64,000 nt of DNA from a virus: the UHGV virus genome UHGV-0070660, one strand, 5' to 3'. Under the pieces are notes generated by a model. The model was not told where the DNA came from. It saw nothing but the letters and a program-made list of their open reading frames with translations, and made no database searches. Position numbers and translations under genes: made by a program. Positions 1 to 30,177 of this stretch are shown piece after piece. Positions within the stretch are counted from its first letter, which is position 1. Each line of letters begins with the position of its first letter.

Positions 1-38
1 GTGCTCAACAGGGGGATCTTTTCACCGCTGGTACCGAG

Positions 39-64
39 TTCTCTTAAACCAAGGTTTAGGATTG
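39..64. other. cix-like recombination crossover site for Cin (imperfect 12-bp inverted half-sites around central AA)
   Basis: TTCTCTTAAACC-AA-GGTTTAGGATTG resembles hix/gix/cix core AAACCnnGGTTT; overlaps cin 3' end. Confidence 0.55.
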
Positions 65-616: not shown

Positions 617-743
617 ATTTTCTGCTCACTATCGTTATTTATAGCAAGCTGCGGATTTTAATTAACAAAAACCAGTATGTGTGGAAATCACAAAGTACAT
701 ACCGTTTCCCAATGATATTTAATTCACTATTAAGGAAATAGTT

Positions 744-1025: not shown

Positions 1026-1092
1026 GCAACAAATGACCGGTTGAGAAGTTACTTTGCATACCATTACCTCCTGACAACGTAGGAGGGAACTT

Positions 1093-1422: not shown

Positions 1423-1862
1423 TTGGCTGGGGTGTATGCGTTCTTGCGTTAGCCTTAGCCGATCGCTATTTGCTAAAACGCAAGGACATCACGCATTTAG
1501 AACTTGGTGATGTGGAAATTAAACCGGGTTTCATCCGGGTGCCGTTCAAATACCGGTCTAAATTCCCGTTTTTGCGCGGCGCAACGGTCAGATATTGGAT
1601 CCGCGATGTTCAGAAGCCGACGACAGTGATTGAAGGCGAACAACGTTGTCTGACGTCGGCTGAACAGGGCGAAAACAGTGAATGGTTGTACATACCCACT
1701 GAATATATGGGTAAAGGAGAGCGACTGTGGCATTTCAACGTCATGGTTACGCATGGCGACTCGTTCATTAACCCGTTGTATCGGATTTTCCCTGTTACTC
1801 AGCAAATCCGCAGAAGTTACGTAATAAATCTCGCACAGGATGTGTCAGATGACGAAAAATAA
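1419..1862 (+). CDS. lydB: antiholin LydB
   Basis: 147 aa, 4-nt overlap with lydA; P1 gene order. Confidence 0.55.
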   Translation: MIGWGVCVLALALADRYLLKRKDITHLELGDVEIKPGFIRVPFKYRSKFPFLRGATVRYWIRDVQKPTTVIEGEQRCLTSAEQGENSEWLYIPTEYMGKGERLWHFNVMVTHGDSFINPLYRIFPVTQQIRRSYVINLAQDVSDDEK

Positions 1863-2451
1863 GTATGCAACGGTCGATTTTGACCAGGTTAATGAAAAGG
1901 GGCTGAAATCCCTTATCGCGGCGATCAATAAAACCGGGGTTACGGTAATTGAGGTTGACTCCAGCAACCGCGCAACAACGAAAGATGGCGTTAAAGTTAA
2001 AACCGCAAAGCTGGTTCTTAACGACGGACAAATTCTTGCCATACAGGTAAACGATACTGGCGATATATCGTCTGTGAAACTGAATGGAAAAGCTATTCCT
2101 AACGCTCAGTCGCCGGATATCAAGACGCTTGGTACCGTCATGGGACAGGCGGCTCGCAAAAACTCCGCAAAATTCCAGAAATCACTGATCGCCAAAGCGA
2201 AGCGTGTTGCCAATCCGGTAGACAAGAAACCGGCAGTTAAATCCAACTTTCAGCGCCTGCAAGAAGCAAAACAGCGGAATGCTCAGGTGGTTGCCGCTTA
2301 TAAATCAGCTCAGAACTCGGTGTCTTTCAATCAACAGCAGATCACTGATTTGCGGGCGAAGCTGGATAAGGAGACAGGCCGACTCAATAACGAAAAGGCC
2401 CGAAATGGCGAACTCAAACGCCGTCTTAAGCAACTGAAAGCAGGAAATTAA
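1849..2451 (+). CDS. hdf: Hdf, first gene of darA antirestriction operon
   Basis: about 200 aa (track ORF 203 aa from 1840; ATG at 1849 has better spacing to AGGA); size and position match P1 hdf. Confidence 0.55.
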   Translation: MTKNKYATVDFDQVNEKGLKSLIAAINKTGVTVIEVDSSNRATTKDGVKVKTAKLVLNDGQILAIQVNDTGDISSVKLNGKAIPNAQSPDIKTLGTVMGQAARKNSAKFQKSLIAKAKRVANPVDKKPAVKSNFQRLQEAKQRNAQVVAAYKSAQNSVSFNQQQITDLRAKLDKETGRLNNEKARNGELKRRLKQLKAGN

Positions 2452-2452
2452 C

Positions 2453-4372: not shown

Positions 4373-4734
4373 CACTATCAGCTATTGAGTTAATGGATCT
4401 CAGCGATAAGTTGGATGCTCTGATGTCCAAAGCGGCTACCGCGAGTGGCATGGAGTTGCTGGATATCAGCGATGAAATTGACCAGATCATGCAACAGATG
4501 GGGTACGGTGTGTCCGGCGGCAGTAGTGGCGAGGAAAAACAACCTTCGGTACATGATGGTGTGCCAAAACTGGTTGCTGATTTCCTGGCTGATAAATTCG
4601 TCGATCAGAGCACCGATGCATTTATCGGTACGTTGCAGGACTTGAGTCAATATGTTGGCACATACATCGATCTGGACCAGGTTAAACAGCACACGGCGGC
4701 ATGGATAGCCGCCAACATTAAAGAGGCAGAGTAA
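4369..4734 (+). CDS. ddrA: DdrA
   Basis: 121 aa, translationally coupled to darA; P1 operon order. Confidence 0.65.
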   Translation: MTLSAIELMDLSDKLDALMSKAATASGMELLDISDEIDQIMQQMGYGVSGGSSGEEKQPSVHDGVPKLVADFLADKFVDQSTDAFIGTLQDLSQYVGTYIDLDQVKQHTAAWIAANIKEAE

Positions 4735-4746
4735 GGCGTAACAGGG

Positions 4747-7734
4747 ATGAGCTTAAGCGATCAGGTGGTAATGGCCACCAGCATAGAAACGCTGATCGAG
4801 CTGCTAAAAAACCTGCCCAATTACGGGCGGGTTTCGTATGTGGTGACAGCGAAGGGAGACGAGGTAAAAACAGCGTTTGATATCGTCGATGCCTCAGCTC
4901 TTTTGGTATCCAATACTCTGGACGGGAAAATTAACCCTGACTATCCCCAGGAACTTCAGCCGCGCGACCGGACCCGCGCATCCAGTCTTCTTCAGGTCAA
5001 CCAGATATCCAAGGATTTGCGTCCTGCCCAGCTTACCGATTCCGGTTTATCCAGCCATGGCGCGCCGATAATTGGTGAGGACAATGCCGTTGAGTCAGGT
5101 AATGGACGGACCATGGGGATCATCAAAGCCTATCAGGACGGCAATGCGGATCGGTATCGTGAGTACCTGATTGATCATGCGACCGAATTCGGCATACGAC
5201 CTGAAAAGGTTGAATCAATGGCGGCTCCGGTACTGGTGCGCCGCCGGTTAACTAAGGTTGACCGCGTTCAGTTTGCCAAGGACTCAAATATTTCTGATCT
5301 TCAGGAAATGGCAGCCAGTGAAAAGGCTTTTGTTGATGCTGACAGCATAACTCCGGCGATGATGGCGCTGTTTAACCCATCAGAAAGCGGAGATCTGCTT
5401 AGCCGCAGTAATGACGCGTTTATTCGCGGATTCATGACGCAAGTTGGTGCCACACAGGCTGCTGGCCTTGTAACGGAAGATGGGCGACCAACACGGCAAC
5501 TTGTAGACCGTATACAAAACGCGATCTTTGCCAAGGCATATAAGGATGCGCGCCTGGTAAGGATGGTTGCAGAAGAACCTGATCCGGATATGCGTAATGT
5601 TCTGACGGCGCTTAATGCGGCAGCCAATGATTTTGTCCAGATGCAGGCTTTATCAGGAGAAGCGCACAAGCAGGCTGTGACAACTATTGTTGATGGTATT
5701 GAGACAGCGGATAGTCTCGATAAAAAGGCGCTGGCGGCATTGAAAGATGCGGTAGACCTGGTAAGGCAATCGAAGGAGTCAGGCCAACATATTATCGATG
5801 TTATTGCTCAGGGGGATATGTTCAGCGAAACAGCCCCGGAAGTGAAAGCGCTCGCGTTGTTCATCGTCGCGAATAACCGTAGCGCGAAGCGTATGGCCAC
5901 CGCCTTTAAATTGATGGCTCAACGTATCAATGATGAGTTACAGCACCAGGGCCAGGCGCTGGGGGATATGTTTGGCGGTGGTGATGTGTCGTTACAGGAT
6001 ATCCTTCGCCAGGTGTCTCAGGAACTGGAAAACGAAGGCATGCAAGGGATATCCGGCGGTCTTTTCGAGTCCGTTTCCGGCGGTAGTTACAACGGTGTTG
6101 CTCCGTATACCAGTTTGCTATTACATCGGGCATCCGGCATCAAAGACATTATTCATCTGATCAGGCTGCTTTCCCGCACAGATCCCCAGGATGAACAGCT
6201 TGTACAAGTGCTTGCGCATTTTGTTCGAATGCCTGTTGCCGACGTGAAAAAATGGTGCCGATTATTCGGTATCAGCAATTCGTTACTTCGCGGCTTGTTA
6301 AATCACGCATCCTCCCTTGGGCGCGATGGCTTTGACGAGATAGCGCAGGCGATAAAAAACGGAGATATGCCACCAGCTATTGACTGGTTTTCCATTCGCC
6401 CAACCAGGGTGAAAGCATTCCTTAGCGCGGCGCATTCGGCATCACCATTGGCAGAAATGGTTCAGAGGTTGTCGCTCATATTCACAGACCATACCGCGTT
6501 GGGTGATCTGACTCTGGACGAGATGAAAGAAGCCTCCATTCAGTGGGCCGATCAACAAAATGAGGTTAACTCTGACTTCTTGCCAGCATTCAGGAAGGCC
6601 GTTAGTAAAGCTGATGATGCCCGTGGAATTCTGAAGGCATTTAAGGCATTGCAAAGTCAGGTTAATAAACATGTCGGTGATATCGATGGGGTAACGGCGG
6701 AAGGCAGGGATATCCTTAAAGAGCACGGCATAACGCCAGAGTTTATTGATGAGATCAGGACGGATATGCAGCGTGAGGTCGTATCGTCCCTGCAAATCGT
6801 AGCCAGAGCGTTGGCGGATGCTAATCCGAAGAGTGCGGCCATTGTTAACCGTGTTATTGGTGATATTGAAGCATCGGAGGGCATGGGGGCGCTGAAACTC
6901 TTCCTTTCGCGAGCGTTTAATCCTAACGGCAATATTCTCCCTGGCATTATTGGTGAGGCTAAAAAGCATGTCAGTGAAGAAGAACTTGAGCAGCTTGACC
7001 AACTACTTAAGCGATTCTCATATAACCCGCAGACACGCTGGCAAATGAATCAGCGAAGTATGGGTTCGGTCCACGAGAAAGTGTTATCTGCCATGAACAG
7101 TGCGATCGCAAACTCATCCGTATCTGAAGAAAAAGCTCTTGAGTGGGCCGACTCTTTTATCACGGAAGAAGTGGAAGAAGCTCGCGCTGGACAGAATGGT
7201 GGGATAGACCTGCGCAAGGAACTTGCTGATATTTATCGCCTGACCGGCGGGAAAATATCGACCTTATCAAAGGTAGTTCACCACCAGGGAAGGGCATATG
7301 CAAATCTAAATGGTGTTGTTGCTGTCAATTTGAACGATGAAAATGCAAGTGCACTGTGGCACGAGCTGGGTCATCATCTTGAGTACAGTAACCCTGGTTT
7401 GTTAGAGAAAGCCCGGTCATTCCTGAAGGCCAATGTTGAAGGGGATAAGCCATCTTTCGTCAATATCGGTGGGCGTGGCAAGCCTGAATGGTGCTTCAGA
7501 TCTCGATTGAGTAATATTTATATGGCGAAGGTATACCCGCCAGCCTCAGTAAGTAACACCGGGAAAATTCGGCAGAAATCACCGACTATTTCCAAAACGT
7601 CAGCAACGGAAGTATTCTCTATGGCTCTTCAGTTGTATCATGACAAAGAGGCCGCTGCCGCATCACTGATGAATGGTGACGGATTGCTGGAACTGTTATT
7701 AGGTGTGGCAAAGGAGCTAAATAATGCAGATTAA
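4747..7734 (+). CDS. ddrB: DdrB large antirestriction/head protein
   Basis: 995 aa; size and order match P1 ddrB. Confidence 0.7.
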   Translation: MSLSDQVVMATSIETLIELLKNLPNYGRVSYVVTAKGDEVKTAFDIVDASALLVSNTLDGKINPDYPQELQPRDRTRASSLLQVNQISKDLRPAQLTDSGLSSHGAPIIGEDNAVESGNGRTMGIIKAYQDGNADRYREYLIDHATEFGIRPEKVESMAAPVLVRRRLTKVDRVQFAKDSNISDLQEMAASEKAFVDADSITPAMMALFNPSESGDLLSRSNDAFIRGFMTQVGATQAAGLVTEDGRPTRQLVDRIQNAIFAKAYKDARLVRMVAEEPDPDMRNVLTALNAAANDFVQMQALSGEAHKQAVTTIVDGIETADSLDKKALAALKDAVDLVRQSKESGQHIIDVIAQGDMFSETAPEVKALALFIVANNRSAKRMATAFKLMAQRINDELQHQGQALGDMFGGGDVSLQDILRQVSQELENEGMQGISGGLFESVSGGSYNGVAPYTSLLLHRASGIKDIIHLIRLLSRTDPQDEQLVQVLAHFVRMPVADVKKWCRLFGISNSLLRGLLNHASSLGRDGFDEIAQAIKNGDMPPAIDWFSIRPTRVKAFLSAAHSASPLAEMVQRLSLIFTDHTALGDLTLDEMKEASIQWADQQNEVNSDFLPAFRKAVSKADDARGILKAFKALQSQVNKHVGDIDGVTAEGRDILKEHGITPEFIDEIRTDMQREVVSSLQIVARALADANPKSAAIVNRVIGDIEASEGMGALKLFLSRAFNPNGNILPGIIGEAKKHVSEEELEQLDQLLKRFSYNPQTRWQMNQRSMGSVHEKVLSAMNSAIANSSVSEEKALEWADSFITEEVEEARAGQNGGIDLRKELADIYRLTGGKISTLSKVVHHQGRAYANLNGVVAVNLNDENASALWHELGHHLEYSNPGLLEKARSFLKANVEGDKPSFVNIGGRGKPEWCFRSRLSNIYMAKVYPPASVSNTGKIRQKSPTISKTSATEVFSMALQLYHDKEAAAASLMNGDGLLELLLGVAKELNNAD

Positions 7735-8035
7735 AATCGCAGCGCCATTAGGTGGAGATGCCATTATCGAATTTGATGATAATGAAGAAGTTTCCGGGCG
7801 TTTAAGCATTATCTCCGGTGACATTACCGAGGACATGATCGCTGAAGCCATAGCTGGGGCAAATCCCAATAGCTATATGGGATTCGTTAACACCCTTGAT
7901 GCTCCCGCAAGTGATGTTCTCCGAACGCTGCATCTTTACGCTGGCTGGTTTGTTGATTGGCCAGCAGTAGATGGTGGCGATGAGGACGACGACGACGATG
8001 ATTTTGGTGATCATGTAGACCAGATCGTATATTGA
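7724..8035 (+). CDS. highly acidic small protein with poly-Asp tract (DNA-mimic-like)
   Basis: 103 aa, about 24 D/E versus 3 K/R, run GDEDDDDDDFGD; overlaps ddrB stop by 11 nt. Confidence 0.5.
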   Translation: MQIKIAAPLGGDAIIEFDDNEEVSGRLSIISGDITEDMIAEAIAGANPNSYMGFVNTLDAPASDVLRTLHLYAGWFVDWPAVDGGDEDDDDDDFGDHVDQIVY

Positions 8036-10386: not shown

Positions 10387-10944
10387 ATGAAGGGAAAAAC
10401 AGCCGCAGGAGGCGGTGCAATTTGCGCTATCGCGGTGATGATTACCATCGTGATGGGTAATGGCAATGTGCGAACCAACCAGGCGGGGCTTGAGCTGATT
10501 GGTAACGCTGAAGGTTGCCGACGTGATCCATACATGTGCCCGGCAGGGGTATGGACTGACGGGATCGGTAATACACACGGGGTAACGCCGGGTGTGCGAA
10601 AAACAGACCAGCAAATCGCCGCTGATTGGGAAAAGAATATCCTGATCGCTGAACGCTGTATTAATCAGCACTTCCGGGGCAAAGACATGCCCGATAATGC
10701 CTTCAGTGCAATGACAAGCGCGGCATTCAATATGGGATGCAATAGTTTACGGACCTACTACAGCAAAGCGCGAGGCATGCGAGTAGAAACGTCCATCCAC
10801 AAGTGGGCGCAGAAAGGGGAGTGGGTGAATATGTGTAACCATCTCCCTGATTTCGTGAACAGTAACGGCGTGCCCCTGCGAGGTTTAAAGATTCGCCGTG
10901 AAAAAGAACGCCAGCTTTGCCTGACGGGGCTGGTCAATGAATAA
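10387..10944 (+). CDS. lyz: SAR endolysin (T4-lysozyme-like)
   Basis: 185 aa from MKGKTAAGGGAICAIAVMITIV (signal-anchor-release segment), catalytic E...D/C...T region ELIGNAEGCRRDPYMCPAGVWTDGIGNTHG. Confidence 0.85.
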   Translation: MKGKTAAGGGAICAIAVMITIVMGNGNVRTNQAGLELIGNAEGCRRDPYMCPAGVWTDGIGNTHGVTPGVRKTDQQIAADWEKNILIAERCINQHFRGKDMPDNAFSAMTSAAFNMGCNSLRTYYSKARGMRVETSIHKWAQKGEWVNMCNHLPDFVNSNGVPLRGLKIRREKERQLCLTGLVNE

Positions 10945-11191
10945 ACTCCGGCAGCTCCGCCGACTTTCGACAATGAAGTTATCGCTGGCGGCGATAGTTT
11001 TCGACTCGATTTTCATGGCGGTATATGTGCTCAATGAGACGTGGCCACTGGAACCGCTATTGTATGCTGGGCTTCGGCTGTGCCTGACATTTTTGAGCAT
11101 GGCTGCAAGATTGATGCAGCAGAAAGAAACCGCTTCAGATTGTCCACGCCGCGCGGTGCGCAAATATATGGCACGCAGGCGAAGGCGATAA
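10937..11191 (+). CDS. small membrane protein, possible lysis accessory
   Basis: 84 aa, TM segment, Arg-rich C-terminus, start overlaps lyz stop. Confidence 0.35.
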   Translation: MNKLRQLRRLSTMKLSLAAIVFDSIFMAVYVLNETWPLEPLLYAGLRLCLTFLSMAARLMQQKETASDCPRRAVRKYMARRRRR

Positions 11192-11202
11192 TAGTTAACG
11201 AG

Positions 11203-11231
11203 AACCCCGGCATCCGCCGGGGTTATTTTTG
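11203..11231. terminator. rho-independent terminator
   Basis: AACCCCGGC-loop-GCCGGGGTT followed by ATTTTT. Confidence 0.75.
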
Positions 11232-11235
11232 GTGG

Positions 11236-13966
<2,731 letters not shown>

Positions 13967-14032: not shown

Positions 14033-17000
14033 ATGAACAAGCTATCTATAGGGGTGTTTCGCTGTTCAAGTGTCAGCGAAATATTGAAATACATTAGGGC
14101 AATAACATCTCACCGAGCGCCGATTAGATACGGCGTGGAAAAGGTGGAAGGCAAAAGCTATGACCGACTACGCCGGGAGGCGAATCAGAAGGCGATAGAT
14201 TTGCTTAATTCGCTGGTGGACGGCGCGACACTGACAGATGAACAGCGCCAGATCCTGGCTGGGTACACCGGCGAAGGCGGCATTGGCGGGTCCGTCTCCG
14301 AATATTACACACCAAAGCCGATCGCTGAAGGTGTCTGGGAGATCATGAAGCTCTACGGCGCGGACGTAGGTAACACTCTGGAACCATCGGCGGGAACCGG
14401 CGTTTTTAATGAGACAAAACCGGTTGGTACGGTGATGACCGCGACTGAGATCAGCAGTGTTTCCGGTCGTATAAACCAGCTGTTGCACCCGGAAGACAGC
14501 GTACAGATTTCTCCGTTCGAACAACTGGCTGTAAGCACGCCTAACGATTCATTCGACCATGTTGTGGGTAACGTTCCGTTCGGTGGTCGTGATAACACAC
14601 GCAACATCGATAAGCCTTACGCAGAAGAAACGGACATGGGTTCTTACTTCATGCTCCGCATGCTGGACAAGATAAAGCCAGGCGGATTCATGTGCGTGAT
14701 TGTGCCGCCGTCCATTGTTTCAGGTTCAAACATGAAGCGGTTACGCCTGCGCCTATCACGGAAAGCTGAATTTCTTGGTGCCCACCGCTTGCCTACCGGT
14801 ACTTTTGACGCTAACGGGACCAGTACGGTCGTAGATGTGGTGCTGATGCGCAAACATCCGGCAGAGATGGCTGAGAAAATCCCCCTGGTGGATGAAAGCA
14901 CTCTCGAATCGGCAAATGTGCTTTGGTCAACGTTTATTTCTGGCAAGTGGTTTGAAAAGGATGGCCGCCGGTTTGTTCATGGCACCCAGGAAAAGGGCTT
15001 CCAGGGGCGTATTGAGGTTCGTGCCGACGGTCAGATTGATAACCAGGCTCTTAAAGCGAAGCTGATTCATCGTTTCGAAAGCCGTATCGACTGGTCTTTG
15101 CTCGATATGGCTGAACCGTCACCGACCGCAGACGTTGTTGGTGAAGGGGAAATGCGCCTGATTAATGGCGTATGGCAAAAATATGCTGGTGGTCGCTGGA
15201 TTGAAGCTGATGCAGGGAAGGAACTTAAGATCGATGCTGCCAGTTATGGCGCGGATAGCTGGGAGGCTCTTCAGCGTAACCTGACTACAACAGAAGGCCG
15301 TCTCGGCATGACATTTACCCAGATGGCAAATGTCCGCGATAAGTACACCACATCAATCAGCGACGATATGGTGCAGCTGGTGGACTGGATTAACAGCCAG
15401 CCTGAAAAATACCGTGAACGCTTGTATCGCGGGGCGATGATTGGCCGGATGTTAATTGAATATCAGGACATGAAGGCCGCCGGGCATAGTGCTGAACAAA
15501 TCGAACAGCAGCGCCTTTCTCTGGTATCCCGTTTGCAGGCAGAGATTGACCGTTTTGGTAACCCCGGTCGCGGTCCGATAGCGAAATTATCGGGGAGCGG
15601 TGCGCGCGCCTGGTTTGCTTTCCGTGGTGCAATTAAGCTGGATGGCACTATTTCTGACGAGCTGACAGGAAAACTGGTTACGCATGATTCCAGCGCCAGT
15701 TATGACTCCACCAGCTATCAGGACACCCTGCGTTATCTCTACAGTGATCTCACTCGCGATCCAATCCAGCTCGATGATTTCCGCCTTGCGTTTACCGGCG
15801 AACTGCCAGCCAGTGATGAAGAGTTGCTTAATTTATTGGCCAGCACCCCTGGTATTGCGGTTTCACCGTATGGCGGGATTGTTCCGTTCGCCCGCGCCAC
15901 CAGCGGCGACATTAACGAGATAGTGGCTCCAAAACAGGAATTCCTCGCCACGCTCCCCGACGGTCCAGTAAAGAACAACGTCCTTAATCAGCTGGCAGCG
16001 ATCGAAGAGAAGCGCATCAAGACGCCAGCAGAGAATATCCGGTTTAAGCTCAATAGCCGTTGGTTCGACCGTTCCGTCATTCTGGAATTTTTGCAGGAAG
16101 ACGGCTATCCGGATCTGCGCTATGTGCAGTCAGTGCAGCTTGAAGGCGACGAAATGGTTTCTGACACCTATCACGGTGGTGATGGTCTGTTCGTCGGGCA
16201 CCGATACGGTGTCGTCCAGCGCAAGGATAAAGAAACAGGCGAGATCCGCTACGAGTGGGACCGTAAATCAGGTGAAAACGCGACCGGGTTCCCGGCACAG
16301 CTGGAAAAGTATCTCAATGGTGCGCGTATCGGTGGCAAAGATAGCGCGACGGCGAACGGCTACCGCGAGCAGATGGCACTGCTTGAGGACCAGTTCAATA
16401 AGTGGATCAAGACGCACGATCGCTACGATGAGCTGGTTGCCAAATACAACGATGTTTTCAATAGCAATATCCCGTATGAACACTCTGGCGATCCGCTTGG
16501 GTTGAAGGGATTAAGCGGTAAGCGACAGCCATTTGATTACCAGAATAGCGAGGTGCGCCGACTGTCCGAAGATGGGCGCGGCATCCTGGGCTTCGGTACC
16601 GGGCTGGGTAAAACCACGACCGCGCTGGCGCTTGAGGCGTTCAACTATGAGAACGGTCGTTCCACCCGTACTGCGTATGTAGTGCCTAAATCAGTGCTGG
16701 AAAACTGGTATTACGAAGCAAAAGAGTTTCTGAGTGAAGAGGCATTCAGTAACTACCTGTTCGTCGGTCTTGATGTGCTGATGGATGGCGATCAGATTCG
16801 CCAGGTGCCGGTGCTCGATGAGAACGGTAAACCTGTCGTTGGTGCAGATGGCACTCCCGTTATGCGCGATGCCCTTAAGCTGGCAGATGAAGCCACTATC
16901 ACGGCGCGGATGAACGCGATCCCGCACTCAAACTACCGTGCAGTCGTGTTTACCAAAGAACAATACGCCCGCATTCCGCTACGTGATGACACCGTAGATG

Positions 17001-20000
17001 AGCATGCACAAGACATGCTTTATGACTTCGTTGCTGCCGGGCGTGTGGCCAGCGCAATGGACTCCGATTCCCATCGCAAAGAGGCGGCGCGTCGCCGGGT
17101 ATTGTCGGAGTATTCAGATACCGGTACCGAAAAAGCAGAGAAGTATCCGTACTTTGAGGATATGGGCTTCGACAGCGTGATTGCTGACGAAGGCCACAAC
17201 TACCGCAATAGCTATAAAAATGGTCGCGAAGCGTCACAGCTGGCCTATCTGCCCACCAGCGCGGTGGCGCAATCGGCGCGAGATATGGCAATCAAAAACG
17301 CGTACCTGATGAAAAAGAATGGTGGGCGTGGACCGGTTCTCCTGACTGCAACGCCAGTCGTTAACACCCCGATCGATGCATACAACATGCTTTCTCATGT
17401 TCTGCCGAAGGAATACTGGCAGAAGATGGGGATCTACGGTCCTGATGACTTCGTTAAATTCTTCGGCAAGACCAGGCTGGAAACGGTACAGAAAATCAGC
17501 GGTGAAGTTGAAGAAAAAATGGCGCTGGTGGGCTTTGAAAACCTTGATGCGCTGCGCGGCATATTCCATCGCTGGACAACGCTTAAAACGGCGGAAGACG
17601 TTAAGGATACCGTGGAGATCCCGGAACTGGACGAACACCAGCAGGATGCACCACTTACTGAAGAACAACTGGCGGCGTATGAAGAATTGCGTCAACAGGC
17701 GGAAGCGGCAGCAAAAGCCAACAATGGCGTAACGACCTCGGTTAATGAAGACGGCGTGATTGAGCACGAGAAAGCCCGTCCGATCTTCTCAATAATCAGG
17801 GATATGGACCGCGTATGTACTGACATGGACCTGTACTATCGCCGGATCACCTATCGTTTCCTGCCGGAGTACGCCGATGCGGTGCAGCAGCTGGCGGACA
17901 GTTTGCCTAAACAAGCCACCAGCGAAGACGACGACAGTGATGATTCAATCACGCAGCAATCGCAATACTCCCTGATAGATAAGGGCGAGTTTATTCAGTT
18001 GCAGGTTCCGGAAGCGTTCGAGCAGGAAGTGAATAAGCGCCTGGCCAAGTTTGGCATTGACGAACAGACCGTAACTCACCCCGTTACGCCCAAATACGTG
18101 AAGCTGATCGCCACGCTGAAGGAGTTTTTCCCGGAAGGTAAGCAAATCATCTTCACGGACGAAAAAACGCAGCACCAGAAGCTCAAGCGCATTATCTGCA
18201 ATGCTCTTAACCTTGAACCTTCAAAGGTGGGGATCCTGAATGCTCAGACGGTTGCCGAGGCAGGTAAAACCGGTAAGAAACTGAAAGCGGTTAAACCGCC
18301 GAAAGAGTTACCGGATGAACCAACAGATGCACAGATAGCGAAATACAACGAGCAAATGGCTCTGTATGACGCCTATATCGCGCAGCAGAATGAAATGTCG
18401 TTGGGCGGTCTGGAAAAGATTGCAGCCGACTTCCAGGAGGGCCGGACTCCGATCATCATCTGCAACAAAAAGGCAGAGGTGGGTATCAACCTGCATCGAG
18501 GAACGACTGACATCCATCATCTGACGTTGCCATGGACACCAGCCAGTATCGCACAGCGTAACGGTCGCGGTGCCCGAGTTGGCTCCAACCGTGCAAGCGT
18601 TCGCGTTCACTACTACTGCGGCAAGGGTTCTTTCGATGAATACCGACTGAAGACGCTGAAGCGTAAAGCAGGCTGGATCTCCGATATCCTCCGTTCAGAT
18701 AAGTCAGAAATGGAGAACGCCGACGCCAACGATATGATCGAAATGCAGATGTATACCGCTAAGGATGATGGCGAACGTCTGGCAATGATGCAGGTTCAAA
18801 TGGATAAGGCGAAAGCCGCGCAACGCGCTCGCCAGAAAGAACAGGCTACTATCGACCTTCAGAACTACATCAAGGCGCAGCACGCAGCTGGCGAGGATGT
18901 GGAGGTACTTACCGCTGAATTAGAGCGAAGCAAAGCGGAACTTGAAAAGACCACCGCCGAGGTAGCTAAATTCAAACAGGCGGTAATGGCCAAAGCAGCT
19001 GATAACGCAGACTGGAAAGCCCGCTGGGGTAGCGTCCATCACACAGACCGTACGTTGTTAGCACAGTATCGCGCGTCGTTGAAAAGCGCCATTCAGCGCA
19101 AGGCTAATATCTCTCAAGCCATCTCCCGCTATGAGAAATTATTGAACCGTACTCAGAAGGCCGCGACGGATATCAAACGCCTGCGCCCGCTGGTGGAGGA
19201 TGCAATAAATAAAGGCATTCTGGATGTTGATCCTGACCTGGTTAACCATGCGAGTGAGTTCCTTGTTATCGGCGATCGCTCATGGCGTGTAGGCCAATAC
19301 TACGATTGTGCCGGTGATATCGTTCGCATTAAGTCGCTGGACTTCGACAGCCAGCGCGCAGACGTGGAGATTATCTTTACCTTCAAAGGTACCAAATCGG
19401 GTAACTGGGATGTGAAGACGCTGGATAAACAGGTTGATGTAACTCCCGATGAAGATGCTGTTATGCAGAAAATCAGTGGTGGCGTCTCCATCGCCGGGAT
19501 TAACGACATCATTTCCTGTGACGATTTCTACCGTTTCCAGCAGCGCGGCATGATCAAAATCACTGACTCATACGGCGTTCAGACTACAGAGTCAGGCTAT
19601 AGCATCGATTTTGTTGGTACCTATTCGGACCCACTGAAGCATGCGGTTTACCCGGATCGCCGTGACGGCGCGCTGAAGTCGTCAATTGCAAAATGGGTGC
19701 TTGGTATGATGTCGGAAGGGAATAACCGCCAGATCCGTTCGGCAGAAACATTCCTGGTTGAACTGTTTGGCTCCAATTATGGCGATGTAATCGCGTCATA
19801 CGGAGATACGCTATCCCCTGAAGCAATTCAGGAGAAAATAGCGGATGCGATCGCCAGAATGCCGGAAAAAACAAGCCAGGGGGCTACTCGTAACGGGGAT
19901 TCTGAACTTGAAGTCACCAATGCCATTTTCGGTACCAATGAGTTCCGGGCGTCAGATTATGAGATCACCACAGCACAGTTTGGCACCATTGGCATTTACA

Positions 20001-20800
20001 GCAATAAAGACGAGATCAAACAGTCAATGGACGCTGCAAGCGCGCGCATTGCAGCAGAACGCAAAGCCAATCTGAATCATGCAGTTTCCGCGCTGACTCA
20101 ATCGTGGGTAACAGCAATCAGGGAGGCCGCCACCACAGGAAAAATCACACCGGCAATTGCGGATGTCGTAAACGACGGCTCTAAATTTATGGATGCCTAT
20201 AAAATGGATGCGGTGCAGTTGCCATCAGCCTATGGTCAACTCAGCTATCGCATGACCTACAACCTGGTATCAATGTTTTCCGACCTTGCCATCCTTGGGC
20301 TGGTGGATCTTAACGAGGTTACGCCGGAATTGCTCAGCATGCGCAAGAATCATGTGGAGATATTGCAGAGAATTAACACGGTTCTTGCCGGGCGCACCGA
20401 TGAAGAGAAACAGGCCGACGCTGATCGGATAAACCTGGCCCTTGGCAACATCACGGAGGAAGAGATTGCCGCCAGAAACGAGAAACAAGAAGAGTTATCA
20501 TCAATACAGGGTGATGCCACCAGCATAGCTCAGTCTCTTGGTCTGAATTATCGCGTATCCACCGCCGACCTGAAGATGATGTACGCACCAAAATTCGCCG
20601 CTGGCGAGGTATTTGGGCTTCAGGAAGCCTCAGGCATGAAAGGCGTTCTTTTCCGTGCGAAAGACGCAATCAAGGCGAAATTCGGCGCTCGCTGGCTGCC
20701 AGCGAAGGCGAAGAACAGCGATTTCCCGGGTAACTGGTGGATTATCGAGACAAAACACAACGTGGCGGACGTTCTGGCCGTCATCCAACAATACGCATAA
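14033..20800 (+). CDS. darB: DarB antirestriction protein (N6-adenine methyltransferase plus helicase domains)
   Basis: 2255 aa; GNVPFGG MTase motif IV-like; Walker A GFGTGLGKTTT and DEGHNYRN helicase motifs; size matches P1 DarB. Confidence 0.85.
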   Translation: MNKLSIGVFRCSSVSEILKYIRAITSHRAPIRYGVEKVEGKSYDRLRREANQKAIDLLNSLVDGATLTDEQRQILAGYTGEGGIGGSVSEYYTPKPIAEGVWEIMKLYGADVGNTLEPSAGTGVFNETKPVGTVMTATEISSVSGRINQLLHPEDSVQISPFEQLAVSTPNDSFDHVVGNVPFGGRDNTRNIDKPYAEETDMGSYFMLRMLDKIKPGGFMCVIVPPSIVSGSNMKRLRLRLSRKAEFLGAHRLPTGTFDANGTSTVVDVVLMRKHPAEMAEKIPLVDESTLESANVLWSTFISGKWFEKDGRRFVHGTQEKGFQGRIEVRADGQIDNQALKAKLIHRFESRIDWSLLDMAEPSPTADVVGEGEMRLINGVWQKYAGGRWIEADAGKELKIDAASYGADSWEALQRNLTTTEGRLGMTFTQMANVRDKYTTSISDDMVQLVDWINSQPEKYRERLYRGAMIGRMLIEYQDMKAAGHSAEQIEQQRLSLVSRLQAEIDRFGNPGRGPIAKLSGSGARAWFAFRGAIKLDGTISDELTGKLVTHDSSASYDSTSYQDTLRYLYSDLTRDPIQLDDFRLAFTGELPASDEELLNLLASTPGIAVSPYGGIVPFARATSGDINEIVAPKQEFLATLPDGPVKNNVLNQLAAIEEKRIKTPAENIRFKLNSRWFDRSVILEFLQEDGYPDLRYVQSVQLEGDEMVSDTYHGGDGLFVGHRYGVVQRKDKETGEIRYEWDRKSGENATGFPAQLEKYLNGARIGGKDSATANGYREQMALLEDQFNKWIKTHDRYDELVAKYNDVFNSNIPYEHSGDPLGLKGLSGKRQPFDYQNSEVRRLSEDGRGILGFGTGLGKTTTALALEAFNYENGRSTRTAYVVPKSVLENWYYEAKEFLSEEAFSNYLFVGLDVLMDGDQIRQVPVLDENGKPVVGADGTPVMRDALKLADEATITARMNAIPHSNYRAVVFTKEQYARIPLRDDTVDEHAQDMLYDFVAAGRVASAMDSDSHRKEAARRRVLSEYSDTGTEKAEKYPYFEDMGFDSVIADEGHNYRNSYKNGREASQLAYLPTSAVAQSARDMAIKNAYLMKKNGGRGPVLLTATPVVNTPIDAYNMLSHVLPKEYWQKMGIYGPDDFVKFFGKTRLETVQKISGEVEEKMALVGFENLDALRGIFHRWTTLKTAEDVKDTVEIPELDEHQQDAPLTEEQLAAYEELRQQAEAAAKANNGVTTSVNEDGVIEHEKARPIFSIIRDMDRVCTDMDLYYRRITYRFLPEYADAVQQLADSLPKQATSEDDDSDDSITQQSQYSLIDKGEFIQLQVPEAFEQEVNKRLAKFGIDEQTVTHPVTPKYVKLIATLKEFFPEGKQIIFTDEKTQHQKLKRIICNALNLEPSKVGILNAQTVAEAGKTGKKLKAVKPPKELPDEPTDAQIAKYNEQMALYDAYIAQQNEMSLGGLEKIAADFQEGRTPIIICNKKAEVGINLHRGTTDIHHLTLPWTPASIAQRNGRGARVGSNRASVRVHYYCGKGSFDEYRLKTLKRKAGWISDILRSDKSEMENADANDMIEMQMYTAKDDGERLAMMQVQMDKAKAAQRARQKEQATIDLQNYIKAQHAAGEDVEVLTAELERSKAELEKTTAEVAKFKQAVMAKAADNADWKARWGSVHHTDRTLLAQYRASLKSAIQRKANISQAISRYEKLLNRTQKAATDIKRLRPLVEDAINKGILDVDPDLVNHASEFLVIGDRSWRVGQYYDCAGDIVRIKSLDFDSQRADVEIIFTFKGTKSGNWDVKTLDKQVDVTPDEDAVMQKISGGVSIAGINDIISCDDFYRFQQRGMIKITDSYGVQTTESGYSIDFVGTYSDPLKHAVYPDRRDGALKSSIAKWVLGMMSEGNNRQIRSAETFLVELFGSNYGDVIASYGDTLSPEAIQEKIADAIARMPEKTSQGATRNGDSELEVTNAIFGTNEFRASDYEITTAQFGTIGIYSNKDEIKQSMDAASARIAAERKANLNHAVSALTQSWVTAIREAATTGKITPAIADVVNDGSKFMDAYKMDAVQLPSAYGQLSYRMTYNLVSMFSDLAILGLVDLNEVTPELLSMRKNHVEILQRINTVLAGRTDEEKQADADRINLALGNITEEEIAARNEKQEELSSIQGDATSIAQSLGLNYRVSTADLKMMYAPKFAAGEVFGLQEASGMKGVLFRAKDAIKAKFGARWLPAKAKNSDFPGNWWIIETKHNVADVLAVIQQYA

Positions 20801-21571: not shown

Positions 21572-22612
21572 GTGTTAGTTAAATATATAGGCGAGAGTTA
21601 TATGGAAAAACCTTGGCCGGGCATGCACATTAGAACATCTTGTCTGGAGGATGGTTTCTTTAGAGCAACGCAACCAAAGTATCTTAATGATCCGTCGAGT
21701 GAGTCGCGACTTCTTCCATTTTTTAATAAATTTTCACCAGCCGATTACGCATGGGCTAGAAATGAATTTAAGAAAATGCAACGAGATCCATCTTATGTCC
21801 CATCTATACAAGAGTTAGAGTATTATTTAAAACCTTGCGGGAAACGATACGGAGAGGATTTTCCACACTTGTTAATCAATGAAGGTTTTACCTCAATGGA
21901 TTCATATGATGAATCTAAACTCCAAGAAATAGTAACGTACCTTAACGATTATTTAGTAGAAGCCGTAAGCTGTCATCTTGGTGTATTCTCTCTATCAAAA
22001 AGTGATTGCAATCTACACATGTGGACTCATTATGCATCGATAGGAAAGGGGTTTGCTGTAGTTTTCGATGAAACACACGATTTTTTTAAAATATATCGGC
22101 CGTGTGATGTTAGTTATAATCCAGAAGATAGAGCATCTGTAACCTATTATAAAGGCGCTGTGCGATTTAATGGCTATCCTGCGCCATCGAGGAATATAGA
22201 TATAAAGAATAAAGATAATACATTGCATGGGATCTTAAATCGAGATCCAGTTCGCGAGCTTTTTATTAATAGGCTTCTTTATACAAAAGGTGAAGAGTGG
22301 CTTCCTGAAAATGAAAGTAGAATTATTTTTCCATTGGCTGATTGCGAGAGAAAAATAGGAAGCATTGTCTCTCCATCGATTGATGATTGCCTATTGAATG
22401 AGTATCCTGATGTTTTTCATGACTATCATGAAATTAACTTAAAGAAAATTCCTTTTTCTGCATTCAAGCAAATTACCTTAGGGTATAACATGACTGAAAA
22501 AGATAAAAATATAATTTTAGATAAAGTTAGTTCGAATAAAGAATTGTCTCACGTCAACGTATTACAATCAAAACTTGATATATACGGAAAGGTTGTGGTT
22601 AAGCCCATGTAA
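21572..22612 (+). CDS. DUF2971-like protein, AT-rich cargo gene
   Basis: 346 aa (GTG start; first ATG at 21602); motif GVFSLSKSDCNLHMWTHYASIGKGFAVVFDE resembles DUF2971 signature; markedly AT-rich versus backbone. Confidence 0.5.
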   Translation: MLVKYIGESYMEKPWPGMHIRTSCLEDGFFRATQPKYLNDPSSESRLLPFFNKFSPADYAWARNEFKKMQRDPSYVPSIQELEYYLKPCGKRYGEDFPHLLINEGFTSMDSYDESKLQEIVTYLNDYLVEAVSCHLGVFSLSKSDCNLHMWTHYASIGKGFAVVFDETHDFFKIYRPCDVSYNPEDRASVTYYKGAVRFNGYPAPSRNIDIKNKDNTLHGILNRDPVRELFINRLLYTKGEEWLPENESRIIFPLADCERKIGSIVSPSIDDCLLNEYPDVFHDYHEINLKKIPFSAFKQITLGYNMTEKDKNIILDKVSSNKELSHVNVLQSKLDIYGKVVVKPM

Positions 22613-22709
22613 TAATACGCTTATGTCTACACTTCATGATAAATACCTTCCTTAACTTAGGAAGGTTAGTTGTGGGTTTACGCAGAAAGTAACAAATAAC
22701 CTTCGTAGG

Positions 22710-23351
22710 TTATAGAATATTATTCTTTCCGGTGAGTATTCCTTGAGGAACTCTAGCGCATCCCATAATTTGAGTTTTCTTGATGATGTTTATATATGAC
22801 GCTATCAGCGATGAGTCATCACGACTATCCACTTCAGAAGCCATTGCCCTGATGTACTCGGCGCTGGCAACGTTGTTGTATTCCGTCGCAAAGCAACATA
22901 GTAACGTCAGAACATGCTCTGTCGTTATTTCGCTCCAGTTGATGTTGAAAAATTCATCGCCTTTTTTATCGTGTTCGGAATCGAAGATGCTTTGGTGGAG
23001 GATGTATTTGCCGGATTCCTTGCGCGGTAACTTGATCGCTTTCTGGCGTTCCAGCTCCTTGTAAATCTGCATTGCTTCAATCAGTACCGGCCTGCCGTTC
23101 ATGAAGGGATCGCGCAACCTTACACGCTGGCCAACTCGACCAGTAATAAAGCTGTTTTCCTCTTCCACCAGCACGATAAAACCCTTTTCCTCTTTTTCTC
23201 GCAATTCGCGCAGCAGCTGGAGTTCCATATCGCGGCGGCGTTCAGGGTAGCTGGTCCGCTCAGCCATTATCAGCTCGTTATTGATCCATGCAGCAGTCAT
23301 TGACGCCGGTTTGCCGACGCTCATCGAAACAACGCATATTTTCTTATCCAT
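22710..23351 (-). CDS. hypothetical protein, possibly Mat by position
   Basis: 213 aa from ATG 23351 with GGGGG RBS (track ORF extends to 23498); backbone-like GC. Confidence 0.4.
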   Translation of the reverse strand: MDKKICVVSMSVGKPASMTAAWINNELIMAERTSYPERRRDMELQLLRELREKEEKGFIVLVEEENSFITGRVGQRVRLRDPFMNGRPVLIEAMQIYKELERQKAIKLPRKESGKYILHQSIFDSEHDKKGDEFFNINWSEITTEHVLTLLCCFATEYNNVASAEYIRAMASEVDSRDDSSLIASYINIIKKTQIMGCARVPQGILTGKNNIL

Positions 23352-23482
23352 AGCGCCCCCTACAAAAAAGAAAAGCCACCAGCGGCGGCTTAGCAATACA
23401 ACTGAAGGTAGCGCCCGGTACTCAGACTGTGCCGTCCATGGAATATTTGAAAAGGGATCCATCCGTACCGGGCGTGTGATGA

Positions 23483-23515
23483 TTCTGACTGAAGTCACTT
23501 GTCAGTTGTCAATCA
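23483..23515 (-). promoter_or_regulatory. putative late promoter-like element
   Basis: minus strand GACAAGTGACTTCAG box related to boxes at 10278, 14007 and 49014. Confidence 0.3.
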
Positions 23516-23540
23516 TTTATCATTAAAAATAATATATTTA

Positions 23541-23801
23541 TTAGTGCATGATGTTTGCCATCTCATAGGCGTCAGCCAGTAACTCCATCTCTGACTTGTT
23601 CAGCAAGGTGAATTCTTTCTTGCCTCCAACCACACCATCGGCATGAACAGGGACCAGCCAGGGGTATTTTTCTCTTACTTCAGCCGGTGCTGCATGCTGG
23701 TGGTGCCATCTACAAAGTGGCAACTGCTTTTTGTGACAACCCGGCGCGGTACGACCGGAGATATGGTGCAGAGACACCTCTTCAGATATTACTCCATGCA
23801 T
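23541..23801 (-). CDS. small HNH-motif protein, possibly the 3' remnant of ref
   Basis: 86 aa with LHHISG...GCHKKQLPLCRWHHQ HNH-like motif; starts 20 nt from Tn3 deletion junction with no RBS. Confidence 0.4.
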   Translation of the reverse strand: MHGVISEEVSLHHISGRTAPGCHKKQLPLCRWHHQHAAPAEVREKYPWLVPVHADGVVGGKKEFTLLNKSEMELLADAYEMANIMH

Positions 23802-24820
23802 ATAGCAGGCAATGCAGGGGAGAGCGCCAATGCAGATTTATCCAGATCCTTCAGCGAGCGGAGCCGTTTTTTCTGCCCAATCTTTCTGGCGTCACGGATG
23901 ATAACGGCCAGCATGGCGTCCAGAACGTCCAATGCATCATCCAGCGCCAGCGTTTCCCATGCAAGGACAAAGGCAACCAGAACCGCCATCCTTTTCTGCG
24001 GTGACATCCTGGCAATATTGAACACCGAAGTCATACCAGCATAACGTGCGAGATTTTTCAGGCGCACAGCCGGGAGTGTACTCAGGTTTTCAGCATGCAG
24101 GCCAAAATCGTTCAGAGTTTTCCAGCGTTCAATTGCTTCATTAAACGCCGGACCACTGATGGTCACAGGGCCCTTTTTCAGTGATTCCAGTAAAGACAGG
24201 CGGCTGCAATCAGTTGGCCCCAGCAGCATCTCCAGCTGTGAACGCTGTTCGGCTGACGGTATCAGTGCCAGTTTGTTCCACAGGCGCAACGTCGCCTTTT
24301 CCCTTACCTCTGAAATCAACCGGGTCAGCGTAGTGGCTCCGGGGAGAATAATACGATGTTGCATAAGCCACCCTGTCGCCAGATCGAAAAGCAGGCCAGG
24401 ACGTTCGTTGCTTATCCAGCTCCGGGTATATAAAAGACGGGTAAGGCGAAATGTCCAGGGCCAGGCAAATTCACGATACTGATAGTGCTGACGTATCAGC
24501 GCTGCATGCTCACGGCGGGTATTTTCCCTCTGACCGTATTCTGCAAGAACGGTGATATCACGAATCCCGAGCTGTCTGGCGGTAAAATGCCGGACGCCGG
24601 AAGGAATATGATTCATATCGGTGAGGAAGGTGCCCAGAAAACGGACACATCCAATTTGCAGGGCAATGCCCAGACGGTTGTGATCACCTCTGCTTTTTCC
24701 GATAAATTCCTTGTCTGCTTCATCAAGGTGAAAATATCGTGCCAGCTGAAGCTCATCCGGTTCACCGGTGAATCTGCCATAGCTTTCAGTCTGCTCAGTG
24801 GTCAGAAAGTCAACGGGCAT
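23789..24820 (-). pseudogene. tnpA: Tn3 transposase TnpA, N-terminal about 337 aa only
   Basis: begins MPVDFLTTEQTESYGRFTGEPDELQLARYFHLDEADKEF; Tn3 TnpA is about 1000 aa, frame ends after short junction-encoded tail. Confidence 0.85.
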
Positions 24821-25541
<721 letters not shown>

Positions 25542-25653
25542 TACGCCTATTTTTATAGGTTAATGTCATGATAATAATGGTTTCTTAGACGTCAGGTGGC
25601 ACTTTTCGGGGAAATGTGCGCGGAACCCCTATTTGTTTATTTTTCTAAATACA

Positions 25654-25681
25654 TTCAAATATGTATCCGCTCATGAGACAA
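25654..25681 (+). promoter_or_regulatory. bla P3-type promoter
   Basis: TTCAAA -35 and GACAAT -10 in TTCAAATATGTATCCGCTCATGAGACAAT. Confidence 0.7.
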
Positions 25682-25711
25682 TAACCCTGGTAAATGCTTC
25701 AATAATATTGA

Positions 25712-26584
<873 letters not shown>

Positions 26585-26693
26585 CTGTCAGACCAAGTTT
26601 ACTCATATATACTTTAGATTGATTTAAAACTTCATTTTTAATTTAAAAGGATCTAGGTGAAGATCCTTTTTGATAATCTCATGACCAAAATCC

Positions 26694-26731
26694 CTTAACG
26701 TGAGTTTTCGTTCCACTGAGCGTCAGACCCC
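26694..26731. repeat. Tn3 38-bp terminal inverted repeat (right end)
   Basis: CTTAACGTGAGTTTTCGTTCCACTGAGCGTCAGACCCC. Confidence 0.9.
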
Positions 26732-26755
26732 AATACAAACCCGCTCTTTTGTGCA

Positions 26756-26780
26756 GCCTGGCTCCTTGCCAGGCTTTTTT
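26756..26780 (+). terminator. rho-independent terminator-like hairpin
   Basis: GCCTGGC-TCCTT-GCCAGGC followed by TTTTTT; overlaps cra stop. Confidence 0.6.
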
Positions 26781-27090
26781 ATTTCATCATGGAAGCTGTT
26801 AACGCTTTGGATCTTGCTGAACTGATTGAAAGGGCATTGTTTACCTTACCCAGGAGTTCGCCAAATTCCGCCATCACTCTAGTAAGCCCGCGCCGCGCTT
26901 CCTCCTCCGTTGCATTCATCACAAAATGTTCAGCACTCCGCATGCTTTTAACGGGGAACGCAACAGATATCGAGTCGATATCAGGCATCCTATCGCTCAA
27001 CTTTACGGTGACAATGACAGATGGTGACTGAATTTGAGAGCTTACAGACAGCACCACATATTTTCCGTCTATTTTGAAATCCTTCCGCAT
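26779..27090 (-). CDS. cra: Cra (cre-associated function) by position
   Basis: 103-aa ORF immediately downstream of cre. Confidence 0.5.
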   Translation of the reverse strand: MRKDFKIDGKYVVLSVSSQIQSPSVIVTVKLSDRMPDIDSISVAFPVKSMRSAEHFVMNATEEEARRGLTRVMAEFGELLGKVNNALSISSARSKALTASMMK

Positions 27091-27140: not shown

Positions 27141-28172
27141 CTAGTCGCCATCTTCCAGCAGACGCACCATTGCCCCCGTTTCACTATCCAGGTTACGAAT
27201 GTAGTTCATGACAATATTTACGTTGGTCCAGCCACCAGCTTGCATGATCTCCGGTATTGAAACTCCGGCGCGGGCCATATCTCGCGCGGCACCGACACGG
27301 GCACTATGTCCAGACCAGGCCAGGTATCGCTGACCAGAGTCATCTTTTGCCCCGTAAATCAATCGGTGAGTTGCTTCAAAAATCCCTTCCAAGGCGCGAG
27401 TTGATAGCTGGCTGGTGGATGATGGCGCGGCAACACCATTTTTTCTGACCCGGCAAAACAGGTAGTTATTCGGATCATCAGCTACACCAGAGACGGAAAT
27501 CCATCGCTCGACCAGTTTAGTTACCCCCAGGCTAAGTGCCTTCTCTACACCTGCGGTACTAACCAGCGTTTTCGTTCTGCCAATATGGATTAACATTCTC
27601 CCACCGTCAGTACGTGAGATATCTTTAACCCTGATCCTGGCAATTTCGGCTATACGTAACAGGGTGTTATAAGCAATCCCCAGAAATGCCAGATTACGTA
27701 TATCCTGGCAGCGATCGCTATTTTCCATGAGTGAACGAACCTGGTCGAAATCAGTGCGTTCGAACGCTAGAGCCTGTTTTGCACGTTCACCGGCATCAAC
27801 GTTTTCTTTTCGGATCCGCCGCATAACCAGTGAAACAGCATTGCTGTCACTTGGTCGTGGCAGCCCGGACCGACGATGAAGCATGTTTAGCTGGCCCAAA
27901 TGTTGCTGGATAGTTTTTACTGCCAGACCGCGCGCCTGAAGATATAGAAGATAATCGCGAACATCTTCAGGTTCTGCGGGAAACCATTTCCGGTTATTCA
28001 ACTTGCACCATGCCGCCCACGACCGGCAAACGGACAGAAGCATTTTCCAGGTATGCTCAGAAAACGCCTGGCGATCCCTGAACATGTCCATCAGGTTCTT
28101 GCGAACCTCATCACTCGTTGCATCGACCGGTAATGCAGGCAAATTTTGGTGTACGGTCAGTAAATTGGACAT
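27141..28172 (-). CDS. cre: Cre site-specific tyrosine recombinase
   Basis: 343 aa MSNLLTVHQNLPALPVDATSDEVRKNLMDMFRDRQAFSEH... ending LEDGD. Confidence 0.98.
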   Translation of the reverse strand: MSNLLTVHQNLPALPVDATSDEVRKNLMDMFRDRQAFSEHTWKMLLSVCRSWAAWCKLNNRKWFPAEPEDVRDYLLYLQARGLAVKTIQQHLGQLNMLHRRSGLPRPSDSNAVSLVMRRIRKENVDAGERAKQALAFERTDFDQVRSLMENSDRCQDIRNLAFLGIAYNTLLRIAEIARIRVKDISRTDGGRMLIHIGRTKTLVSTAGVEKALSLGVTKLVERWISVSGVADDPNNYLFCRVRKNGVAAPSSTSQLSTRALEGIFEATHRLIYGAKDDSGQRYLAWSGHSARVGAARDMARAGVSIPEIMQAGGWTNVNIVMNYIRNLDSETGAMVRLLEDGD

Positions 28173-29325: not shown

Positions 29326-30177
29326 ATGATAAATTATGTCTACGGCGAACAACTGTACCAGGAGTTCGTCAGCTTCAGGGATCTCTTTCTAAAAAAAGCT
29401 GTTGCACGCGCCCAACACGTTGATGCCGCCAGCGACGGTCGTCCTGTACGCCCGGTTGTCGTTCTGCCGTTCAAAGAAACGGACAGCATTCAGGCTGAAA
29501 TTGATAAATGGACTTTAATGGCGCGAGAACTGGAACAGTACCCAGACCTCAATATCCCAAAGACTATTTTATATCCAGTGCCTAACATCCTTCGCGGTGT
29601 GCGTAAGGTTACAACTTATCAGACAGAAGCTGTGAACAGCGTCAACATGACCGCTGGCCGCATTATTCATCTGATTGATAAGGACATTCGCATCCAGAAA
29701 AGCGCGGGGATCAATGAGCACAGTGCGAAATACATAGAGAACCTGGAAGCAACAAAAGAGCTAATGAAGCAGTACCCGGAGGATGAAAAATTCCGTATGC
29801 GTGTACACGGCTTTAGCGAAACAATGCTGCGCGTCCATTACATTTCCAGTAGCCCTAACTACAATGATGGTAAATCAGTTAGTTACCATGTGCCGCTGTG
29901 TGGTGTGTTTATCTGCGATGAAACTCTCCGTGATGGAATCATCATCAACGGTGAATTCGAGAAAGCAAAATTTAGCCTTTATGACTCTATAGAACCGATC
30001 ATCTGCGACCGCTGGCCGCAGGCAAAAATATATCGCCTGGCAGATATTGAAAATGTAAAAAAACAAATTGCCATCACTCGCGAAGAGAAAAAGGTCAAAT
30101 CAGCCGCATCAGTTACGCGCAGCCGTAAAACTAAGAAGGGGCAGCCAGTAAACGACAACCCCGAAAGCGCGCAATAG
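29326..30177 (+). CDS. c1: C1 immunity repressor
   Basis: 283 aa MINYVYGEQLYQEFVSFRDLF...; operator-like sites nearby. Confidence 0.92.
   Translation: MINYVYGEQLYQEFVSFRDLFLKKAVARAQHVDAASDGRPVRPVVVLPFKETDSIQAEIDKWTLMARELEQYPDLNIPKTILYPVPNILRGVRKVTTYQTEAVNSVNMTAGRIIHLIDKDIRIQKSAGINEHSAKYIENLEATKELMKQYPEDEKFRMRVHGFSETMLRVHYISSSPNYNDGKSVSYHVPLCGVFICDETLRDGIIINGEFEKAKFSLYDSIEPIICDRWPQAKIYRLADIENVKKQIAITREEKKVKSAASVTRSRKTKKGQPVNDNPESAQ

Follow-up and report, generated by a model that had tools for sequence, protein, structure and literature searches.

The 64-kb window, by which we mean the whole stretch of DNA analyzed here (64,000 nucleotides), is a P1-like phage-plasmid in which the 3′ part of the ref gene is fused to the truncated tnpA of a Tn3-family blaTEM transposon. 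The fusion is very probably a two-step scar, in which a complete ampicillin-resistance (blaTEM) transposon inserted beside ref and a single 2,523-bp deletion then joined tnpA to ref. It is a routine pseudogenization scar, not a new kind of element, and events of this type are already known.

Genetic setting

The local gene order starts with darB (14033–20800), followed by a 146-aa ORF that is named Ulx in the closest relative, MH445380, and an 82-aa ORF called 'modulator protein' in the same record. The next backbone gene, mat (maturation control; 22710–23462, − strand), is intact, 97% identical to P1 mat and untouched by the scar. Its start, at P1 nt 2716, falls at window position 23462, and the Omat operator and the late promoter LPmat fall at ~23482–23550 when the P1 annotation coordinates are transferred to the window. 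Across the mat–ref stretch (22600–23830), the window is 100% identical to MH422554 and MH445380, which are 'Escherichia phage P1' records from the infant gut, and 97.5% identical to reference P1. Beyond the transposon remnant, c8 (26779–27090, − strand) and cre (27141–28172, − strand) are both intact, and the P1 backbone runs on past cre to lox at ~28607. A 283-aa ORF at 29326–30177 is, we presume, of the size and in the position expected of the C1 repressor gene.

Between the 82-aa ORF and mat lies a 346-aa ORF on the + strand (21572–22612), which matches Pfam DUF2971 (9e-6) and the PADLOC candidate-defence family PDC-S31 (2e-16). P1 carries at least res in this slot, presumably together with mod (type III R-M EcoP1) and IS1, and plasmid NC_017653.1 has a SIR2-family gene in the equivalent position. 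The slot thus looks like a variable defence or cargo site of P1-like plasmids.

The ref remnant

The ref sequence retained in the window (23541–23830, − strand; P1 nt 2348–2637) comprises nt 272–561 of the 561-nt gene, that is, 290 nt spanning codons 91–186. It is 100% identical to ref of MH445380, and the homology stops exactly at 23830, or P1 nt 2348; nt 1–271 are missing from the window and from its source contig. Within the remnant, an 86-aa ORF (23541–23801, − strand) starts at the internal Met101 of Ref. The first-pass annotation had proposed that this HNH-motif ORF is what is left of the 3′ end of ref, lying in the orientation and position expected for the P1 gene, and the ORF does adjoin mat as ref should. 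It matches Pfam PF16786 (RecA_dep_nuc) over profile positions 22–102 of 103 with 131.9 bits, compared with a cut-off of 26.9, and it aligns end to end and without gaps with residues 101–186 of the P1 Ref crystal structure (PDB 3PLW, chain 3PLW_A; E = 8e-56). The two sequences are identical at 84 of 86 positions (98%), the substitutions being N107E and A114S, so that the outcome that would have told against the proposal, an ORF with no similarity to the Ref C-terminus, was not what we found. The HNH histidines His134 and His153 (P1 numbering) are kept in the 3PLW alignment; these are the residues mutated in Ref active-site variants (PMC4713147, PMC4330346). The ORF had no match in PADLOC or NCBIfam, and we rejected a defence function for it.

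The remnant has neither a promoter nor a ribosome-binding site (RBS) nor a start codon of its own, since the C1-controlled promoters, RBS and start codon of ref all fall in the deleted P1 nt 1879–2347. Upstream of Met101, the ref-frame DNA still encodes residues 92–100 (G-A-L-P-C-I-A-C-Y) and then runs into an in-frame stop just inside the transposon DNA; back to that stop, the ref frame contains no ATG, GTG or TTG start before Met101. As had been noted for the RBS, the 20 nt preceding the ATG (23801) contain no Shine-Dalgarno-like purine-rich sequence. Ref without its N-terminal 76 residues loses DNA binding, and residues 77–186 form the globular domain (PMC4330346). Because these functions map to 1–76 and 77–186, a product that begins only at residue 101 would have neither the positively charged DNA-binding region (76 residues) nor residues 77–100 of the globular fold. 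Judged from its sequence, ref in this element is probably a pseudogene that has lost its function, and the 86-aa HNH ORF is probably a leftover reading frame, not an expressed gene.

The transposon remnant

The DNA adjoining ref belongs to a Tn3-family blaTEM transposon of the Tn902 type. Over nt 2038–4950 of the P7 Tn902 copy, 2912 of 2913 positions are identical, and the sole mismatch, at 23821, carries the ref-type base (A in the window; C in the transposon). Beyond the repeat that it shares with ref (see below), the transposon occupies 23831–26731 on the + strand (transposon nt 2050–4950) and contains tnpA codons 1–333, res, tnpR, blaTEM and the right inverted repeat (IR).

The truncated tnpA frame (23789–24820, − strand) encodes 343 aa, of which 333 are native (out of 1001 codons). 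The first-pass annotation correctly described a truncated Tn3 TnpA followed by a short tail, although it put the native part at about 337 residues; the ten-residue tail, SPALPAICME, is an out-of-frame reading of ref DNA that ends at a stop at 23789–23791. The only Pfam domain in this product is DUF4158, the N-terminal DNA-binding part (4.6e-53). Against the NCBIfam model for Tn3 transposase (NF033527), it scores 297.7 bits over profile positions 2–314 of 954, below the cut-off of 500 bits, and so falls short of a full-length TnpA; the catalytic domain is absent. The res/promoter region (24821–24983) has the same sequence as the P7 transposon across res in a whole-region comparison. The adjacent resolvase gene tnpR (24984–25541, + strand) is intact (Resolvase, 4e-41; HTH_7, 6e-12), and blaTEM (25724–26584, + strand) encodes a full-length class A β-lactamase that matches NF000531 over positions 1–286 of 286 with 668.1 bits (cut-off 625).

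The right IR, a 38-bp terminal inverted repeat (26694–26731, − strand), abuts P1 DNA precisely. A search of the 64 kb for the 38-bp sequence returned this one match only, with 0 mismatches and 0 matches expected by chance. With one IR and no catalytic domain, the transposon is presumably immobile, which would leave blaTEM, tnpR and res fixed in the phage-plasmid. The DUF4158 part of TnpA and a single IR might together confer Tn3-type target immunity or hinder incoming Tn3-family elements.

A G+C-rich hairpin (AGCCTGG...CCAGGCT) followed by TTTTTTATTT lies directly outside the right IR, at 26746–26775 (+ strand). It reads as a + strand terminator, antisense to c8, and is kept in P1; the transposon insertion point adjoins it. 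In MH445380.1, where ref is intact, another mobile-element insertion (~10640–13772) starts inside the 3′ end of c8, a further cargo junction within the same few hundred bases.

Breakpoints and proposed origin

To define the breakpoints, P1 nt 1–5839 and the 4,950-bp P7 transposon were each compared with the window by BLAST. Three segments were obtained: P1 nt 2348–3350 matched 23830–22828, P1 nt 1–1878 matched 28607–26732, and transposon nt 2038–4950 matched 23819–26731 with the one mismatch already described. Apart from the IR repeat, these were the only matches of either query to the window. Missing from it are therefore P1 nt 1879–2347 (469 bp), which in the P1 annotation hold the C1 operator Oref, the promoters P1ref and P2ref and the ref start codon (nt 2077), and transposon nt 1–2040, which are also absent from the 96.7-kb source contig.

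The switch from ref to tnpA takes place within a perfect 9-bp direct repeat, GAGCGCCAA (23822–23830), which is common to ref (P1 nt 2348–2356) and tnpA (transposon nt 2041–2049); 11 of 12 positions match if the repeat is extended to 23819. A three-way alignment of the window, ref and tnpA, the comparison that had been suggested for finding the exact breakpoint, matches ref upstream of GAGCGCCAA and the transposon downstream. At the opposite end, the P1 flank adjoining the right IR is AATAC (26732–26736; P1 nt 1878–1874), which is presumably the surviving copy of a 5-bp target duplication. No second AATAC is present at the ref junction, where the flank is GCCAA, in line with the expectation that the duplication would be incomplete; the partner is expected to be missing if the left flank was deleted.

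We then assembled an ancestor in silico from the window up to 23830, 469 bases from MH445380, the assumed duplication AATAC, and the transposon from nt 1 onwards. In this construct, two copies of GAGCGCCAA lie 2,523 bp apart (9 for one repeat copy, 469 of backbone, 5 of duplication and 2,040 of transposon), and removing the interval regenerates the window base for base. Direct repeats of at least 9 bp are unremarkable by themselves: there are ~10 between the 764 bp on the ref side and the 3,040 bp on the tnpA side, compared with an average of 6.7 in shuffled controls. Nevertheless, given ~10 repeats and 764 × 3040 possible pairs, we estimate that only ~4e-5 of random breakpoint pairs would fall in such a repeat by chance. 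The anatomy of the locus, its two breakpoints, the microhomology and the sufficiency of one deletion are thus established.

The missing parts of tnpA and ref have not been relocated. BLAST of the full 4,950-bp transposon against the window recovered only nt 2038–4950 and the IR, with the remainder of tnpA found nowhere else. In IMG/VR, four contigs contain a 36-mer taken from the lost stretch of tnpA and 77 contain a 34-mer taken from the lost 5′ stretch of ref; the source contig is in neither set. An intact tnpA elsewhere, which would have spoken against a deletion, is thus found in neither the window nor the source contig, and we rejected relocation.

In the origin that we propose, a complete 4,950-bp transposon with the same sequence as Tn902 of P7 would have inserted at P1 nt 1878/1879, in intergenic DNA flanked by the c8 terminator on one side and the ref promoters on the other. 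Its orientation would have directed the left IR and 3′ end of tnpA towards ref and the right IR towards c8 and cre; the predicted left junction of this ancestor is GGATGCGGAATAC joined to GGGGTCTGACGCTCAG, and its right junction would be GAGCGTCAGACCCC joined to AATACAAACCCGCTC. One 2,523-bp deletion between the 9-bp direct repeats in tnpA and ref would then have removed one repeat copy, the left copy of the target duplication, transposon nt 1–2040 (the left IR and tnpA codons 334–1001) and P1 nt 1879–2347 (Oref, both ref promoters, the RBS and ref codons 1–90). This agrees with the first-pass annotation, which had described a Tn3 insertion followed by an adjacent deletion of the left IR, two-thirds of tnpA and the 5′ part of ref, except that the insertion site is placed upstream of the ref promoters and not within ref itself.

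The order of these events and the mechanism of the deletion are what we infer from the two junctions. The clean boundary between IR and backbone points to genuine transposition of a complete element. The ref/tnpA boundary, on the other hand, suggests recombination between short homologies and not the action of transposase, because transposase would have ended at the IR; the likely mechanism is short-homology illegitimate recombination, by replication slippage or by annealing of short repeats. Intact copies of the transposon with target duplications, in ref of P7 and of the P1-like contig IMGVR_UViG_2778261457_000003, indicate that it does transpose into this region. In the window, with the left copy of the duplication gone, the two-ended nature of the original insertion can only be presumed.

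Searches of INPHARED phages, PLSDB and 5,426 complete E. coli genomes found no ref/tnpA junction. Among public contigs, IMGVR_UViG_2617271072_000004 (96,725 bp) alone was found to have either junction; it carries both and appears to be the source contig of the window, so that there is no second, independent example of the junction. A pre-deletion ancestor, sought through the right-IR/backbone junction, was not found in PLSDB, GTDB genomes (representatives) or JGI metagenomes, and the predicted left-IR junction was not found in IMG/VR or GTDB. No record in PLSDB, IMG/VR, GTDB representatives or JGI metagenomes has an intact transposon at P1 nt 1878.

Alternative explanations

One-ended (aberrant) transposition, which is documented for the Tn3 family, would leave the right IR as the only terminus and a segment ending inside tnpA (nt 2040), and the transposon would never have been complete at this site. 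Both the single IR and the failure to find an ancestor with an intact transposon in PLSDB, IMG/VR, GTDB or JGI metagenomes speak for this route. We nonetheless consider it very improbable, as 469 bp of backbone are missing, whereas transposition produces a 5-bp duplication and not a deletion of the target, and as the internal end lies in a 9-bp repeat common to the target, the signature of a deletion guided by homology. A chimeric join between transposon and ref, made during genome assembly, is a slightly poorer explanation still. The occurrence of the junction in one contig would fit such an artefact, and so would the abundance of this transposon, copies of which are common enterobacterial repeats (1807 of 5426 E. 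coli genomes). Nine shared bases, however, are far below the k-mers that assemblers use, the join sits in the middle of tnpA and not at a repeat boundary, and the same contig has a clean IR/backbone junction at the other end of the transposon, with one contiguous deletion explaining the structure.

The scar could also have gained a function, if the TnpA fragment were translated from the tnpA promoter and ribosomes re-initiated at the ATG at 23799–23801 to make a miniature HNH form of Ref that affects the host. This ATG is 8 nt upstream of the stop codon of truncated tnpA (23789–23791) on the same transcript, a promoter-like site is present at 24920–24892 (− strand), His134 and His153 are kept, and the C-terminal domain of Ref has been reported to inhibit cell division (PMC4713147). 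On paper, then, translational coupling to truncated tnpA is geometrically possible, but nothing else supports it. The ATG is not preceded by a Shine-Dalgarno sequence. Missing from the product would be globular-domain residues 77–100, and with them the Cys96/Cys99 pair, as well as the entire DNA-binding region, which is needed for activity at normal concentrations (PMC4330346). In addition, a structure unique to one contig gives no sign of selection, and we regard such a gain of function as scarcely credible, much as we do an assembly error. Insertion of a complete transposon followed by one deletion is the explanation that we retain.

Consequences of ref loss

The scar is of little general significance, as both genes, the transposon and this type of event, a deletion by short homology beside a transposon, are all textbook material. 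For annotation, both the 86-aa HNH ORF and the 343-aa 'transposase' are best labelled pseudogene fragments. For epidemiology, blaTEM would be locked in a transducing phage-plasmid, leaving recombination or transfer of the P1-like element itself as its only routes of spread. The window also adds a further natural ref-null P1-like element, one that might form lysogens more readily and do less harm to its host during fluoroquinolone exposure.

It is conceivable, although we think it unlikely, that loss of ref was selected and not accidental in resistance-carrying P1-like phage-plasmids, with Ref itself perhaps promoting the deletion between the 9-bp repeats in its own gene. Ref reportedly stimulates RecA-dependent excision between 9-bp repeats (Lu et al. 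1989). The case for selection draws on the effects of ref on lysogens (PMC4713147), on the three transposon insertions at ref and on the partial ref found in about one-fifth of ref-matching PLSDB plasmids (see below). Lysogens of ref-deleted phage grow normally and lyse normally on thermal induction, ref-deleted phage lysogenize ~40-fold more often than ref+ phage, and ref raises the sensitivity of lysogens to ciprofloxacin (PMC4713147). The normal growth and lysis, together with the ~40-fold gain in lysogenization, explain why disruption of ref is tolerated.

Comparison with known ref disruptions

Compared with P1 Ref, a RecA-dependent HNH endonuclease, the window keeps residues 101–186 with their catalytic histidines at 84/86 identity, and lacks the promoters, the start codon and residues 1–90 at the level of DNA, or 1–100 in the ORF. 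The closest parallel is ref::Tn902 in P7 (AF503408, where the element is annotated 'Tn3'; historically Tn902), in which the same transposon lies in the same c8–ref–mat interval and ref is altered. In P7, however, the transposon is complete (4,950 bp with both IRs), runs in the opposite direction and lies 24 bp from the stop codon of ref, so that the insertion replaces only the C-terminal tail of Ref, whereas the window combines an insertion at nt 1878 with the deletion of 2.0 kb of transposon and the 5′ half of ref. Given the different site and opposite orientation, we rejected derivation of the window from the P7 insertion.

The P1-like contig IMGVR_UViG_2778261457_000003 has a 100% identical transposon interrupting ref, in the same orientation to the backbone as in the window. 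Unlike that in the window, this copy is complete (2851–7800), lies at P1 nt ~2501–2506 with a target duplication, and has no adjacent deletion. It was rejected as the ancestor, as it keeps less of the 3′ end of ref than the window does. The same blaTEM transposon has thus inserted in or beside ref three times independently, in P7, in IMGVR_UViG_2778261457_000003 and in the window.

We also surveyed PLSDB with ref of MH445380.1 (9942–10502) as the query. Of 649 records that match ref, 516 cover at least 80% of it in one place and 133 (~20%) do not. In one recurring group, all that is left of the gene is its 3′ 326 nt, for example in NC_017653.1 (p12579_1; 3001–3326), where, as in the window, a 3′ remnant of ref adjoins foreign cargo. 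In contrast to the window, 326 nt are kept rather than 290, the cargo encodes an MBL-fold hydrolase, an HTH regulator and an ester cyclase, and the truncation involves no Tn3-family element. The P1-like phage-plasmid family thus shows recurrent disruption of ref.
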